NCBI RefSeq assembly: GCF_044324785.1 | Contig: NZ_CP172127.1 | Direction: 5' to 3' (one strand) | Length of the DNA stretch: 64,000 nt | Source: Escherichia coli | GTDB taxonomy: Bacteria > Pseudomonadota > Gammaproteobacteria > Enterobacterales > Enterobacteriaceae | Shown here: positions 2,323-17,943 of the stretch, one piece after another | Layout: each line of letters opens with the position of its first letter | Numbering within the stretch: the first letter of the stretch is position 1 | Translations under genes and position numbers: made by a program | Notes under the pieces: model-generated | Told to the model about the DNA's origin: nothing | What the model saw: only the letters and a program-made list of their open reading frames with translations | Database searches by the model: none

Positions 2323-3891
2323 TTAGCGTGCCGGCTGAGTAGTCGTGGAAGACTGCTCAAAGTGATAGCGACCGGTTTTCAGGCTGCTTGGGCCGAGGCG
2401 TGCAAACTTGAACATTAAGAACAATTCTGCCACCAGGAACAGGGTATACAGGCCGCAAATCAGCACCATTGAGAAGATGAGGTCGCCTGCGGTCAGTGAC
2501 GAGTTCGCCACAGCTGTCGGCAGCACTTCACCGATAGCCCACGGTTGGCGGCCATATTCAGCCACAAACCAGCCCGCTTCTACAGCAATCCACGGCAGCG
2601 GAATACCGTACAGCGCGGCGCGCAGCAGCCATTTTTTCTCGCCAATGCGGTTGCGGATGACACTCCAGAAAGAGAGCGCGATGATTGCCAGCAGCAGGAA
2701 GCCACACGCCACCATGATACGGAACGCGAAGTACAGCGGCGCTACACGTGGAATGGAGTCTTTGGTTGCCTGTTGAATCTGCGCTTCAGTTGCATCCGCC
2801 ACGTTTGGCGTATAGCGTTTCAGCAGCAGACCGTAACCGAGGTCTTTCTTCATGCTATTGAACTGATCACGAACCGCCTGGTCGGTAGAACCAGAACGCA
2901 GTTGCTCGAGCAGAGAGTACGCCTTCATCCCGTTACGAATGCGTTCTTCATGCTGCACCATCAGTTCTTTCAGGCCGATAACTGGAGTATCCACGGAACG
3001 CGTTGCAATGATGCCCAGCGCGTAAGGGATCTGGATCGCAAATTTGTTCGTCTCCTCTTCCTGATCAGGAATGCCGAACAGAGTAAAGGCAGCAGGCGCA
3101 GGTTGCGTTTCCCACTCGGCTTCAATAGCAGCCAGTTTGGTTTTCTGCACGTCGCCCATTTCGTAGCCGGATTCATCACCCAGAACAATAACAGACAGAA
3201 CGGCAGCCATACCGAAGCTGGCAGCGATAGCAAAGGAGCGTTTAGCGAAGGCGAAGTCACGACCTTTCAGCATATACCATGCGCTGATACCGAGGATGAA
3301 CATCGCGCCAGTCACATAACCAGACGCTACAGTGTGAACGAATTTCACCTGAGCAACCGGGTTAAGCACCAGCTCGGAGAAGCTCACCATCTCCATACGC
3401 ATAGTTTCAAAGTTGAAATCGGATGCGATTGGGTTTTGCATCCAGCCGTTCGCAACCAGAATCCACAGTGCGGACAGGTTTGAACCGAGCGCCACCAGCC
3501 AGGTGACACACATATGCTGAACTTTACCCAGACGATCCCAACCGAAGAAGAACAGACCTACAAAGGTGGATTCGAGGAAGAAGGCCATCAGACCTTCGAT
3601 TGCCAGCGGCGCACCGAAGATATCCCCTACATAGTGGGAATAGTAAGACCAGTTAGTCCCGAACTGGAACTCCATGGTCAGACCGGTAGCCACACCCAGA
3701 GCGAAGTTGATACCAAACAACTTGCCCCAGAACTTGGTCATATCTTTATAAATCTGTTTGCCGGAAAGGACGTAGACCGTTTCCATAATGGCCAGCAGGA
3801 ACGCCATACCGAGCGTCAGTGGCACAAAAAGGAAGTGGTACATCGCGGTCAAGGCAAACTGTAAGCGCGACAGTTCGACTATATCTAACAT
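2323..3891 (-). CDS. cydA: Cytochrome bd-I ubiquinol oxidase subunit I
   Basis: ORF-track frame 2323-3894 (MMLDIVELS...); start placed at the second Met ([12 protein letters not shown]...) to give the 522 aa expected for CydA. Confidence 0.96.
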
Positions 3892-4228
3892 CATGACTCC
3901 TTGCTCATCGCATGAAGACTCCGAGAGTGAACCCCGTTAGAAAGGGTCACACGCATGCCCCAATACAAAATTATTTGCTCGCCTCTATCGTTGCCATTTC
4001 ATCAAAAGAGGAAAAGACAATGATAAAAAAGTTACAAATATGTTAATGAATAAACCAAATTGATCCCGTAATTATATTACGCCGCAAAATCCTTACAATA
4101 AACAGGTTTTTATTGAGCAAATTTGCATTTTTCGACAGTGATCAATTTATAGCGAAATTGTCACGACATCACCAATTTGATCTACGACAATTTATCGTGT
4201 TTTGCAGATTTTTTTCAAGAATTAAAAA

Positions 4229-4696: not shown

Positions 4697-5641
4697 ATGA
4701 GTCCTGATAATATCGGTTCGGCTGTCAATCGCTTCTTAGGTTGGCCATCTAATGATCCTCTAAAAACAGATAACGAATCAATGACATCACCCGTGACTGT
4801 GCAGGTAATAAAGATGATTGCCGCCATCCTTGACCCACATCGGATAGTCGTTGGAATCGATACACTTTATACAACGCAGCGCGAAACATTTACCTCAGAG
4901 AGTCAACAGCTCATTGAATCAGCATTGCAAACACTTCATGTGATGAATTTAAATAACCTGGAAACAAATCTCGATGAGGAAGGTCACTATCTGGCTTTTG
5001 GATATAACGTTGACACTCCTGACAGAATAACCGTTTCTGCTTATAATGAAAAAAAGCCTGGCTGCTATGGTCAATGTCTTTTAATACAGGATGACGAAAC
5101 AGACTTATTTAACCTGATAAAAGTTAAAATTTTTGAAACCAGGCATAATTATGTCGCTCAATTGATGAGCGATCCGGAATTTATGTTCAAATTTAGTTAT
5201 AGCGCTCAACAAAATAGATTAGAACCTCATCTTCTGGTTCCCACTTATTTCCCTCTAAAAACAAACGAACCGGTTACGCAAGAGGATGTACTGTTACTTT
5301 ATCGTTTCTTTAAAATGGATGGTGATTTTAATATATTAACATCAGATGAATACATGAGTATCATGACACCTCTGATGAAGTGTGAGCGCAGCATCCACGA
5401 CCACAACAGGTATGTGACGGGCAAAGATACCCTTCTTCTGGACTATCCTCCTTCTGGTAACCAGATATATTTCCATATTTTTCCTGACGAATCAGCAACA
5501 CTAGTCCTTTATTTTTCAAACAATGACATTGAATGTTTCGTCTTTGAAAGAGATATTCCGAGCCAGTATCGCTTTTTCAAAATGTTTACCAATCTGGCAC
5601 TGGTTATTGATCAGTTAACCGATGCCAATCAAATACTTTAA
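4697..5641 (+). CDS. Hypothetical protein, 314 aa, AT-rich, no recognisable domain
   Basis: Long ORF with GAGG upstream of the ATG; markedly AT-rich versus flanking core genes; no signal peptide, P-loop or other motif I recognise. Confidence 0.6.
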   Translation: MSPDNIGSAVNRFLGWPSNDPLKTDNESMTSPVTVQVIKMIAAILDPHRIVVGIDTLYTTQRETFTSESQQLIESALQTLHVMNLNNLETNLDEEGHYLAFGYNVDTPDRITVSAYNEKKPGCYGQCLLIQDDETDLFNLIKVKIFETRHNYVAQLMSDPEFMFKFSYSAQQNRLEPHLLVPTYFPLKTNEPVTQEDVLLLYRFFKMDGDFNILTSDEYMSIMTPLMKCERSIHDHNRYVTGKDTLLLDYPPSGNQIYFHIFPDESATLVLYFSNNDIECFVFERDIPSQYRFFKMFTNLALVIDQLTDANQIL

Positions 5642-5721
5642 TTTTTATATATTCCCTGTGGCAAATATTGCTAAACAATGCCCGGGGATTAATTTTTATT
5701 ACTCACGGAAAGATTTAAATA

Positions 5722-6144
5722 ATGATCCCATCTCAAATCTCTTTCAACACCCTTCCTGTCAATGCAACATACGCTTCAGAGACAACAGTTGACACACAAA
5801 AATTCTCTGACATCCTCTACTCAGCGGGGTGTTCCCTAAAGGATCTGGCTTATCTGAGCAGATGTCTGGCATCAATACATCCGACTATCGCCAAAAACAT
5901 TTATGAAACAGAAAATCTCAGCGATCAAAAATTACTGCATATTGATTGCCGTAGTACAAATGAAATCAAGATAAATATCTTTTTTGGTCAACAACGAGAA
6001 GGATTAATTGAAATTAATTCTGACACTGTCATTTTTCCGATATTGTCTTCATTAATTGACTCCGCCATTTCTAAATTTCAACACCAAATCCCCGTTAACG
6101 GTTCAGTAAATCCTGACCTATTGTATGAGGATTATACTGATTAA
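5722..6144 (+). CDS. Hypothetical protein, 140 aa, AT-rich, no recognisable domain
   Basis: ORF 80 bp downstream of 4697-5641 on the same strand with the same AT-rich composition; Ser/Thr-rich N-terminus (MIPSQISFNTLPVNATYASETTV...). Confidence 0.5.
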   Translation: MIPSQISFNTLPVNATYASETTVDTQKFSDILYSAGCSLKDLAYLSRCLASIHPTIAKNIYETENLSDQKLLHIDCRSTNEIKINIFFGQQREGLIEINSDTVIFPILSSLIDSAISKFQHQIPVNGSVNPDLLYEDYTD

Positions 6145-6691
6145 ATCCCTCCTGTCGCGAAAAATGGCCTGCGTTATTGCCAGACGTAATAAAACTTTTG
6201 ATTAACGTTACTCGTACTGGTAGCACCTTCATGTACTTTTCTTTTTTACGAAAAATCAAAAGAGCTAACAAAGGTCATAATTCGCATGAATCATTAATTA
6301 TTTGTTATTTTCAACATTATTTTTACATTAAGCAGAGATGAATTGCAGTGAAATTCGACTTAACTTTTATGAAATGCATTTACTCATGGCTAAAGCCACG
6401 TCACAAAAATGCAAATTAGAAGTTGATCACAATTATCTCAATACATCAAATCAAGTTAATTTTAAAAATTTAACATTCATGACATTAGTTGACATAACAC
6501 ACTGAATTAAAATGATAATTTGAAAACACACTTTAAACAATCATTTCCCGAAAGACATTTTGAAAATAGATCAATTGCAACATTACGGTCAGATAAAGAC
6601 ACTCCTGTGATATTAAACCTGTGCCGTTATGAGCGGCCATAAATACGACGTGTGTAACTTATTTTACTCTCTGTCTTACAAAGGATTACCC

Positions 6692-7141
6692 ATGAAGAAA
6701 GCAACACTTGTGATTGGCGTTATTGGCGCGGACTGCCATGCAGTAGGCAATAAAGTTCTGGACCGAGTTTTTAGCAACCATGACTTCAGAGTTATTAATC
6801 TGGGCGTAATGGTCAGCCAGGACGAATATATTGATGCTGCCATTGAAACTGGTGCTGACGCGATTGTCGTCTCCTCTATCTATGGGCATGGCGATATCGA
6901 TTGTCTGGGCATGCGCGAACGCTGCATCGAGCGTGGGCTGGGTAACATCCTGCTCTATGTGGGCGGTAACCTGGTGGTCGGAAAACATGACTTCGCTGAC
7001 GTGGAAACCAAGTTCAAAGAGATGGGATTTGATCGCGTCTTTTCCCCAAGTCATGACTTAGAAGATGTTTGTCAGCTGATGGCCCACGATATCAACCAAC
7101 GTCATGACGTTGATACTCGCATTCTTGAAGAGGCAATCTGA
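6692..7141 (+). CDS. glmS: Glutamate mutase (methylaspartate mutase) S subunit, B12-binding
   Basis: [24 protein letters not shown]... carries the cobalamin-binding DxHxxG-type motif and resembles clostridial GlmS/MutS; start at the internal Met with an AGGA RBS rather than the ORF-track start at 6629. Symbol follows clostridial nomenclature, not glucosamine-6-P synthase. Confidence 0.9.
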
Positions 7142-8529
7142 TGCAAATCGTCTCTGTCGATATTGGATCGACGTGGACCAAAGCAGCCCTCTTCACCCGG
7201 GAGGGGGACGCGTTAACGTTGGTTAACCACGTTCTGACCCCAACCACCACCCATCATCTGGCGAAGGGGTTTTTCTCCAGCCTGGACCAGGTGTTAAACG
7301 TAGATAATGCCCTCCCCCTGTTAAACAGTGGTGAGGTTGCATTGAAGTATTCCTCCTCTGCCAAAGGTGGGCTGGCGGTTGCCGCAATGGGATTGGTGCC
7401 TTCTATCACCCTGGAAACCGCGAAAGTAACCGCTCACTCTGCGGGGGCTAAAATTGCGCAATATTACGCCTACAAGCTGAACCGCCGTGATATCCAGGCA
7501 CTGGAAGAAACGCAGCCCGATATTCTCTTGTTCACCGGCGGCACCGACGGCGGAGAAGAAAGCTACGGCCTGAATAACGCCCGTGTGCTGGCAGAATCCA
7601 AACTCGACTGCGCCATTATTTATGCCGGAAACCGGGATATTCAGGACGAGGTGCAGGAGATCCTAGGGCATAAAGACCTGACCATCGTCGACAATGTTCT
7701 GCCCGATCTTGACCATCCGAACCCTTTAGCTGCACGCCAGGCTATCTGCGACATATTCCTTAAACGCATCGTTAAAGGGAAAGGGCTGGATGTCGTTGTT
7801 GATAAAACAGGCGAAGAACCAATGCCGACACCGTGGACAGTCTTTGAACTGGTTAAGGCAATCAGTAATGTCGATCACAGCTGGAAAGAGTTCATGCTGA
7901 TCGACATGGGTGGCGCAACCACCGATGTCTATTCCGCCTGTGCCAACACGCTCTCGCCCGACACCGTTTTACACGGCGTACCGGAACCCTTCGTGAAACG
8001 GACGGTGGAAGGCGATCTGGGAATGCGCGTCTCGGCAATGGTGGTTGGTGAAAGTGCGAAAGAGTTAGTCAATGTGAATTTTGCTCAGCAACCCGCACAG
8101 CTGGACGCTTTTTATCATTACCTCCGTCATCTAGTCGCTCATCCCGACTACTTACCCGCGAATGCAGAAGAAAAATATTTCGATACCGTCCTGGCCGGAC
8201 TGTGTGTGGGTTATGCCACCGAAAGACATGCGGGCACCAAAAAAGAGGTCTGCACCTGCGTCGGCAATGTCGATTTACAGATGGGACGTGACCTGACAAC
8301 CGTGCGTAAAGTCGTCGGATCCGGCGGATGGCTCTCGCGTGCCAGTCAGTTCGATATGCATCACTGGTTGAAATACCGCGAGTTAAACGACGACGGTAAA
8401 CGCATTCTCTTACCGACCGAATTTGAATATTACCGCGATTCCCGGGGGCTATTACCACTGCTGGCAAACGTCGCCAGAGTCGATCCACTGGCCGCCGCGC
8501 GCACCAGTATTCAATGCTTAACCCTATAA
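7141..8529 (+). CDS. glmL: Glutamate mutase-associated GlmL/MutL-type protein (actin-like ATPase family)
   Basis: 462 aa ORF between the S and E subunit genes, as in clostridial glmS-glmL-glmE; N-terminus [18 protein letters not shown] typical of the sugar-kinase/actin fold; ATGA overlap with glmS. Confidence 0.8.
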   Translation: MQIVSVDIGSTWTKAALFTREGDALTLVNHVLTPTTTHHLAKGFFSSLDQVLNVDNALPLLNSGEVALKYSSSAKGGLAVAAMGLVPSITLETAKVTAHSAGAKIAQYYAYKLNRRDIQALEETQPDILLFTGGTDGGEESYGLNNARVLAESKLDCAIIYAGNRDIQDEVQEILGHKDLTIVDNVLPDLDHPNPLAARQAICDIFLKRIVKGKGLDVVVDKTGEEPMPTPWTVFELVKAISNVDHSWKEFMLIDMGGATTDVYSACANTLSPDTVLHGVPEPFVKRTVEGDLGMRVSAMVVGESAKELVNVNFAQQPAQLDAFYHYLRHLVAHPDYLPANAEEKYFDTVLAGLCVGYATERHAGTKKEVCTCVGNVDLQMGRDLTTVRKVVGSGGWLSRASQFDMHHWLKYRELNDDGKRILLPTEFEYYRDSRGLLPLLANVARVDPLAAARTSIQCLTL

Positions 8530-16768: not shown

Positions 16769-17674
16769 TTACATCTCCTGCGGTACGACCGATTTCGCCA
16801 GCAACCATTCACGAAATTGCTGCAAGTGCGGCGAGTCAGACTTCTCTTCCTGCCACGTCATAATAAAACGATTACCGGTACGAATAGGCACATCACAGGG
16901 AATCACCATATCGCCACTATCCAAATCATGTTGAATAGCGAACCGTGGTAACAGCGCCACGCCGAGATTAGAGCGCACGGCGGCAATCAGCATTGAAAGC
17001 AAATCGAAACGTGGTCCGTTGTTGACCAGCGGACTGCTAACGCCAGATAAGGCAAACCACTCTTCCCAGCCAGTAATACGGGTACTTTGATGCAGAAGTG
17101 GTAACTCTGTAAGCAGTTCTGCCACTGACAGTTTTTGATCGGACATTGCAAGCAAACTGCCGCTGCATACCGGCAAAATCTCTTCTTCAAAGAGATATTC
17201 TACTTCCGCCCAGGGCGCGCAAAAATTTTCGCGCATAATGACAGCATCGTACTCCCGATTAAGAAAATCGCCGTTATTAGCTAAAGAGTGAATATTAACA
17301 ATAATATCGGGATGTAACTTTGTGAATTCATGTAAATTTGGGATTAACCAGTGGGTACTAAACGTAGGATTCACGGCAAGTTCAATAACCTGAACCGTAG
17401 GCTGCCAGGTCATAATGGTATTGGTATCGCGTTCCAGCTTATTTAATGTTTCTTTTACTATCCCCAGGTAATACTTCCCTGCATCATTAAGAAAAATACG
17501 TTTTTTAGAGTGTGAAAATAACGGAGTATGTAAAAATTCCTCCAGCGCACTCACTTGTCTGAATACTGCACTTTGGGTTAACGCTAACTCCTCTGCCGCT
17601 CTGGTATAACTTTCATGACGTGCGACGACCTCAAAAGTCACCAGCAGTTCCGTTTTAGGTATTTTCCCTCGCAT
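16769..17674 (-). CDS. LysR-family transcriptional regulator
   Basis: 301 aa ORF with N-terminal HTH (...YTRAAEELALTQSAVFRQVSALE...) and LTTR-type C-terminal domain. Confidence 0.9.
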   Translation of the reverse strand: MRGKIPKTELLVTFEVVARHESYTRAAEELALTQSAVFRQVSALEEFLHTPLFSHSKKRIFLNDAGKYYLGIVKETLNKLERDTNTIMTWQPTVQVIELAVNPTFSTHWLIPNLHEFTKLHPDIIVNIHSLANNGDFLNREYDAVIMRENFCAPWAEVEYLFEEEILPVCSGSLLAMSDQKLSVAELLTELPLLHQSTRITGWEEWFALSGVSSPLVNNGPRFDLLSMLIAAVRSNLGVALLPRFAIQHDLDSGDMVIPCDVPIRTGNRFIMTWQEEKSDSPHLQQFREWLLAKSVVPQEM

Positions 17675-17943
17675 AATGCCGTCCCTTAAAAATAGTTTAA
17701 ACCATCAAAAATACATTACTTATTACGAAGTAATGGTAACCAAAGCAGCAATAAATAATTTATAAGAATCATGATTGACATTTATAACCCAGTAAGCCTG
17801 GCGTGACAAATATCTTAATCAGATAATAATAATCCGAAAAGCACAGCGCCTTTCGAATTATCCGGAATCACATTAAGTGAAAATTATTAAATTGATATCA
17901 TTTATCATATCTGTGGATATTATGATAAACAATCAACAAAGAT

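Follow-up and report, generated by a model that had tools for sequence, protein, structure and literature searches.

The 547-bp intergenic region ahead of the methylaspartate-pathway (glm) operon, in the 64-kb stretch of Escherichia coli DNA analysed here (hereafter the window), is probably, at roughly 60% by our estimate, the promoter and regulatory region of that operon, with an overlapping operator and activation by a LysR-type regulator, and not an RNA leader. Across more than 50 glmS upstream regions of Enterobacterales, conservation outside Escherichia is confined to the proximal ~150 bp. The analysis narrows the control region to about 60 bp of operator and promoter, with a candidate regulator, for an operon that has so far resisted induction, and it speaks against the long leader or B12 riboswitch that might have been expected. 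This cluster for glutamate fermentation is present in about one-fifth of complete E. coli genomes.

Genomic setting of the glmS upstream region

The intergenic region extends from 6145 to 6691, between the stop of an ORFan gene (a homologue of ECs_0766; stop at 6144) and the ATG of glmS at 6692; an earlier note on this DNA had described it as a long, AT-rich and non-coding gap before the operon, and its coordinates were exact. The GC content of the gap is 32.0%, compared with 51.2% for the whole window, and A/T tracts of at least 4 nt occur 3.3 times per 100 nt, compared with 1.0 in the window. The gene that follows, glmS (methylaspartate mutase S subunit; 6692-7141, plus strand), has its Shine-Dalgarno sequence AAGGA at 6681-6685 and is the first of an operon that runs on the plus strand in the order glmS-glmL-glmE-mal-atuA-DUF4387-transporter-fumD-cobO, within a strain-variable island sited between cydA (2323-3894, minus strand) and sucD. 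Over 45 kb of annotated sequence of strain EDL933, three inter-feature gaps exceed 500 bp, all of them in or at the edges of the glm island. The gap stretch is carried by 1135 of 5426 complete E. coli genomes, and the RefSeq records of these 1135 carriers hold no annotated feature within it. An in-frame ATG at 6629 gives glmS a mechanical ORF of 170 aa, but neither E. whittamii nor Escherichia sp. E1V33 has this ATG, which leaves 6692, as annotated, as the start. Over the 50 nt that precede the glmS ATG these two genomes match the window exactly, save for 4 nt inserted in E. whittamii, and the identity of 6640-6691, including ~25 nt around the ribosome-binding site, exceeds what a Shine-Dalgarno sequence alone would need.

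The cluster has been reported, in the only experimental paper that our search found on it, from roughly 90% of O157:H7 strains and from many opportunistic enterobacteria, and Kronen & Berg, its authors, who drew the LysR regulator discussed below as part of the enterobacterial cluster, found that no tested condition induced it in O157:H7, including anaerobiosis, glutamate and three cobalamins (PMC4682846). Our literature search returned no regulatory study of the operon that addresses its regulator or promoter, and the box and promoter described below appear to be undescribed so far in the literature searched. Two of the assemblies encountered have discordant labels: a contig of a metagenome-assembled genome named 'Collinsella sp.' is 99.6% identical to the E. 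coli region (locus L003), and a 'Citrobacter sp.' assembly contains both E. coli-like and Citrobacter-like glm loci (L004 and L010); these look like mis-binned or mixed bins.

A conserved operator-like block and a predicted weak promoter

A scan for GlmS in a collection of species-representative genomes yielded 80 loci; the upstream regions were compared in an alignment (26 sequences) and, for more than 50 loci, as an ungapped stack with ATCAATTG as its anchor, and per-position counts were taken over 30 sequences from more than 15 genera. When the gap was compared with the 80 loci by BLAST, only ~6494-6616 was conserved outside Escherichia, and in Enterobacteriaceae this part is always found ~100-130 nt before glmS. 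Its components follow a conserved order, namely a T-run, GAAAGA, TTTTGAAAATAGATCAATTG, a stretch of variable sequence and fixed length, and a -10-like hexamer. The block TTTTGAAAATAGATCAATTG (6558-6577) is nearly invariant in Enterobacteriaceae and is the core of a conserved operator-like block, TTTnnnGAAAGAnATTTTGAAAATAGATCAATTGCAA (6544-6580, plus strand), in which ATCAATTG is kept at 29-30 of 30 across Enterobacterales (ATCA and TTG in 30 of 30 sequences, dyad bases in 27-30 of 30). The distance from the element to the ATG is 92-288 nt, irrespective of whether cydA, sumT, a threonine-kinase-like or a btuF-like gene lies upstream. In Citrobacter amalonaticus S646, ~100 nt that may be a repetitive element are inserted in the predicted 5' untranslated region (UTR), between the promoter and the ribosome-binding site (L015:4770-5000).

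Within the block lies the dyad TGA-N7-TCA, TGAAAATAGATCA (6561-6573; centre 6567), which has the T-N11-A form and dyad symmetry of a LysR-type box. The short palindromes that the earlier note had remarked on in this gap show no excess over chance for AT-rich DNA, with one exception at this very place: TTGA-N7-TCAA (6560-6574) occurs once in the gap, compared with 0.4 times in shuffled sequences, and is invariant across genera. Patterns for FNR, CRP, IHF, ArcA, NarL, Fur, sigma-54, ArgR, Lrp, NtrC and Nac gave nothing above chance in the gap. The sole FNR/CRP matches with two or fewer mismatches, at 6416-6436, are themselves at chance level and unconserved outside Escherichia, and the operator, being N7-spaced, does not have the form of a class II FNR or CRP site.

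The right-hand end of the block overlaps a predicted -35 element, TTGCAA (6575-6580, plus strand), of which TTG (6575-6577) is present in 30 of 30 sequences, and a predicted weak -10 element, GACACT (6598-6603, plus strand), follows after 17 bp, within the 16-18 bp range of sigma-70 hexamer spacing. The 14 positions 6581-6594 vary in sequence and never in length, and the spacer is always 17 bp. At positions 2, 4 and 6 of the -10 hexamer A, A and T are found in 30, 29 and 30 of 30 sequences, respectively, a pattern characteristic of a -10 element and one that retains its two critical bases; the hexamer elsewhere reads CACATT, CATATT, GAAACT or CACACT. The agreement with consensus is weak (TTGCAA 4/6 and GACACT 3/6, 7/12 in all), and a consensus scanner made no call here. 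The earlier note had placed the control signals of the operon within the gap, and the conserved operator-like block with its predicted -35 and -10 elements would bear this out.

Judged from the position of the -10 element, transcription is predicted to start at 6609-6610 (plus strand), which would place the dyad centre at about -43, a semi-conserved TTTnnnGAAAGA at -66 to -55, and leave a 5' UTR of ~82 nt (6610-6691, plus strand) with no significant or conserved secondary structure. A further hexamer, TATTAA (6611-6616, plus strand), is kept in Enterobacteriaceae and is not kept in Yersinia, Hafnia or Morganella; together with ACTCC (6601-6605) it is conserved in Enterobacteriaceae beyond the needs of the -10 element alone. 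TATTAA could be the true -10 element, in which case the start would shift by ~13 nt to ~6623 and the dyad to ~-56, or it could mark a second protein contact. With either choice of -10 element the UTR is predicted to measure ~70-85 nt, not 547.

A LysR-type regulator linked to the cluster

A GcvA-like LysR-type regulator is encoded at 16769-17674 on the minus strand, at the opposite end of the cluster from glmS and in convergent orientation, as had been noticed from the sequence earlier. Its best named family is GcvA, with 221 bits against a family cut-off of 288 bits, so it is a paralogue and not GcvA itself. Orthologues are found at the cluster end and in convergent orientation in Klebsiella and Enterobacter (85% identity for Enterobacter), 2.7 kb upstream in Yersinia (62-64%), upstream in Yokenella (57%) and next to a transporter-fumD-cobO unit in locus L089, and they are adjacent and divergent to glmS in locus L090 (55%) and in Rhodoferax and Aromatoleum (42-45%). 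The gene is genetically linked to the cluster in more than eight genera, with three arrangements that are divergent and adjacent, and linkage of a cognate gene to its target is a feature of LysR-type regulators. In L090, the best match to a position weight matrix (PWM) built from the glmS sites in the whole 10.9-kb locus falls in the divergent regulator-glmS gap and is followed by TTGCAA, 17 bp and GATTTT; in the Betaproteobacterial regulator-glmS gaps the enteric motif is not recognisable. The left half-site differs in Yokenella, and so does the recognition helix of the regulator (TQGALFRQ vs TQSAVFRQ). The box persists in Hafnia and, with its left half degenerate, in Morganella, and no LysR gene lies within 10 kb in either genus; a protein search for orthologues of the regulator returned none labelled Morganella or Hafnia. 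We put the odds that the box is bound by the cluster's own LysR regulator at a little over one half.

Further operator-like sites were sought with the same matrix. The full-length version (38 nt) finds the glmS site alone in the E. coli window, which suggests that a single operon may be controlled there. In four Yersinia species, one further match per locus was found, TTGCAGATAGAACAATTG followed by TTGCTT, 16 bp and AATAAT; it lies ~140 nt ahead of a gene for a class I fumarase (fumD-like), in the stretch that directly follows the LysR orthologue (L042:1307-1326, minus strand; homologues in L045, L047 and L049). That the box also precedes a -35 TTG and a near-consensus -10 element, suitably spaced, at an unrelated promoter of this pathway supports the promoter reading and a small pathway regulon. 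Two weaker operator-like sequences lie upstream of the LysR gene in the window, and neither is shared with Klebsiella or Yersinia: TGAAAATTATTAAATTG (17878-17894, plus strand; 10.7 bits), which is the third-best PWM match of the window and is taken as a lead only, and TTAAAAATAGTTTAA (17686-17700), with three mismatches and 12 nt before the LysR ATG. Such sites would make autoregulation possible. Upstream of cbiA, Morganella and Enterobacter share a motif, TGAAAAAA(A/T)ATCAAGTA (L083:1952-1968 and L088:2556-2572, minus strand), which came up there as the second-best PWM match and probably belongs to the control region of the cob operon.

The distal ~400 bp is lineage-specific and AT-rich

The remainder of the gap has a separate history. 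A stretch of ~1.75 kb in E. coli (4538-6285) has no counterpart in E. whittamii or Escherichia sp. E1V33 (loci L005 and L006); it contains two ORFan genes on the glmS strand and the initial 140 bp of the gap. What corresponds to the ancestral upstream region of Escherichia is 6286-6691, and the distal segment 6145-6285, missing in both relatives, was inherited with the ORFan genes. These genes encode proteins of 314 aa (4697-5641) and 140 aa (5722-6144), together spanning 4697-6144 on the plus strand; they are low in GC and restricted to Escherichia, where E. whittamii and Escherichia sp. E1V33 lack them and Escherichia sp. MOD1-EC7003 carries them in frameshifted form. Their products have no Pfam, NCBIfam or PADLOC match and homologues at the Escherichia level only. 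The pattern suggests that they were inserted recently, between the control region of cydA and the glm promoter.

Two blocks of the ancestral segment are conserved within Escherichia only: 6300-6319, with 19 of 20 positions identical to E. whittamii, and 6400-6479, with 66 of 80; their flanks are unalignable between E. coli and E. whittamii. The second block contains a CRP-like TTAGA-N6-TCACA and, on the minus strand, TGnGATAAT. In every Enterobacterales locus, the 400 nt upstream of glmS are 23-35% GC, compared with 46-59% in coding sequence, and these upstream sequences are unalignable. AT-rich DNA on strain-variable islands is the usual substrate of H-NS, and the gap has the composition of xenogeneic DNA (32% vs 51% GC) on an island present in only part of the species. 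In the gap the 10-bp high-affinity H-NS motif shows no enrichment. These distal ~400 bp form a lineage-specific mosaic of AT-rich DNA to which H-NS would plausibly bind.

Weighing of alternative explanations

That the operator is real and has another binder, an IHF-, H-NS- or CRP/FNR-family-like protein or an unlinked factor that perhaps represses over the -35 element, is the most serious competitor, to which we give about one chance in four. The dyad overlaps the -35 region, a position that repressors also use, the box contains ATCAA (the IHF core) and an 8/10 match to the high-affinity H-NS motif, the LysR gene of E. coli is not divergent from its presumed target, and Morganella and Hafnia retain the box with no LysR gene nearby. 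Yet the box fits none of the global-regulator consensus patterns tested, its 20 bases invariant across genera are held far more tightly than is usual for IHF or H-NS sites, and its dyad is of the T-N11-A form. The linkage of the LysR gene to the cluster in more than eight genera, including the three divergent-adjacent arrangements, and the joint alteration of half-site and recognition helix in Yokenella also argue for the linked regulator.

A transcribed 5' leader of several hundred nucleotides with control at the RNA level, by a riboswitch, an attenuator or Rho- or RfaH-dependent processivity, seems improbable, despite a long gap without an ORF before the gene of an enzyme that requires B12, for which a riboswitch would make sense. 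No Rfam family, the cobalamin riboswitch (RF00174) included, reached its gathering score anywhere in the window (1-64000) or in eight orthologous loci, in keeping with the earlier note, whose author had recognised no B12 box; a permissive cmscan (E up to 10) of 5500-7300 returned two noise matches and nothing else. Fold z-scores were unremarkable (-0.65 for 6608-6710 and -1.47 for 6145-6710), RNAalifold over 15 genera found three invariant pairs and no compensatory changes or covarying pairs, and a consensus pattern search found no RfaH ops element in the gap. The best consensus promoter match in the gap (TTGACA, 16 bp, AATGAT; 6489-6516) would suit a longer transcript, but the gap holds five promoter-like matches against 5.0 in shuffled sequences, and this one is unconserved even within E. 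coli, its -10 element being lost in O157 and L004 and its -35 element in MOD1-EC7003. No intrinsic terminator was seen in the gap or between the upstream same-strand ORFan genes and glmS, so read-through transcripts from the ORFan genes may cross the gap; such read-through, or a start further upstream, is compatible with the data. Sequence upstream of ~6494 is nonetheless unconserved outside Escherichia. The earlier proposal that all 547 bp form a transcribed untranslated leader consequently finds no RNA family, significant fold or covariation in its favour, and only the proximal ~150 bp is conserved outside Escherichia. Less probable still is an unannotated gene in the gap, either a small RNA or a small protein, for which the 55-aa ORF at 6338-6505 (perhaps the former ECs0765) would be an example. 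The Sakai annotation formerly placed a locus tag, ECs_0765, between glmS and ECs_0766 and has since dropped it, and the blocks 6300-6319 and 6400-6479 are conserved within Escherichia. In E. whittamii and Escherichia sp. MOD1-EC7003, however, every ORF of 20-58 aa in the gap is disrupted by stops or frameshifts (the 55-aa ORF by stops in the former and a frameshift in the latter), in line with the earlier impression that there was no obvious ORF; none exceeds 58 aa or is conserved, and differences among E. coli lineages are mostly amino-acid-changing. Pfam, NCBIfam and Rfam gave no match, and a terminator and any annotation in the 1135 genomes are likewise lacking.

Proposed model of glm operon control

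In the preferred reading, a LysR-activated promoter with an overlapping operator, the operator at 6544-6580 with its TGA-N7-TCA dyad would overlap the -35 element TTGCAA of a weak sigma-70 promoter, and transcription from the -10 element GACACT would begin near 6610, giving an unstructured 5' UTR of ~82 nt, so that most of the 547 bp would probably lie upstream of the operon's own promoter. Because the -10 element is poor, the promoter would depend on an activator at ~-43, and the likeliest activator would be the GcvA-like LysR regulator from the far end of the cluster, acting with a co-inducer. The remaining ~400 bp upstream would probably serve mainly as an H-NS silencing platform for the acquired island, perhaps with Escherichia-specific sites. 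The failed induction in O157:H7 (PMC4682846) fits an activator-dependent or silenced promoter.

Several observations sit less easily with this model. The dyad is predicted near -43 and not at the classical LysR recognition site of ~-65, the consensus scanner passes over a promoter this weak, and ACTCC and TATTAA are more conserved than the -10 element explains; furthermore, Morganella and Hafnia keep the element with no LysR gene within 10 kb, the gap shows no enrichment for the H-NS consensus motif, and with no terminator after the same-strand ORFan genes read-through could contribute. A more elaborate version, which we regard as speculative and rather unlikely, is a silencing and counter-silencing switch, in which H-NS coats the ~400-bp tract and keeps the operon off until it is displaced by the LysR regulator, bound at the box with a co-inducer from the host (glutamate, methylaspartate, mesaconate or a gut signal). 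If so, the blocks 6300-6319 and 6400-6479 would add pathotype-specific inputs, and the switch would account for the lack of any successful induction of the cluster in vitro.

Comparison with known regulatory systems

The predicted arrangement most resembles promoters controlled by LysR-type regulators, such as GcvA/gcvT, DsdC/dsdXA, BenM/benA and CbnR/cbnA, with which it shares a T-N11-A dyad upstream of or overlapping a weak sigma-70 -35 element and a LysR gene linked to the pathway, with a divergent regulator-target pair in L090, Rhodoferax and Aromatoleum. It differs from them in the location of the regulator gene, which in E. coli, Klebsiella and Enterobacter lies at a distance of ~10 kb and in convergent orientation, and in the placement of its strongest dyad. 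LysR-type promoters classically have a recognition site at ~-65 and an activation site near -35, whereas the dyad centre here is predicted at -43, or at -56 if TATTAA is the -10 element. Class II activator promoters (CRP/FNR, with the site at -41.5) are similar in having a dimer-sized palindrome over the -35 element and a poor -10 element, but TGA-N7-TCA fits neither the FNR sequence TTGAT-N4-ATCAA nor the CRP sequence TGTGA-N6-TCACA. With the cobalamin riboswitch leaders of btuB, cob and the eut/pdu context, the region has in common a long non-coding stretch before a B12-dependent pathway operon; unlike them, it has no match to RF00174 or another Rfam family, no B12 box and no conserved structure. 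The likeness to H-NS-silenced islands of E. coli and Salmonella lies in A-tract DNA of ~30% GC at the edge of a strain-variable island and in an operon that is silent in the laboratory (PMC4682846), while H-NS binding is here predicted from composition and the 10-bp motif is not enriched. Taken together, a weak promoter, an overlapping LysR-type operator and the AT-rich edge of an acquired island, as read from the sequence, would make up an arrangement that is standard for bacteria.
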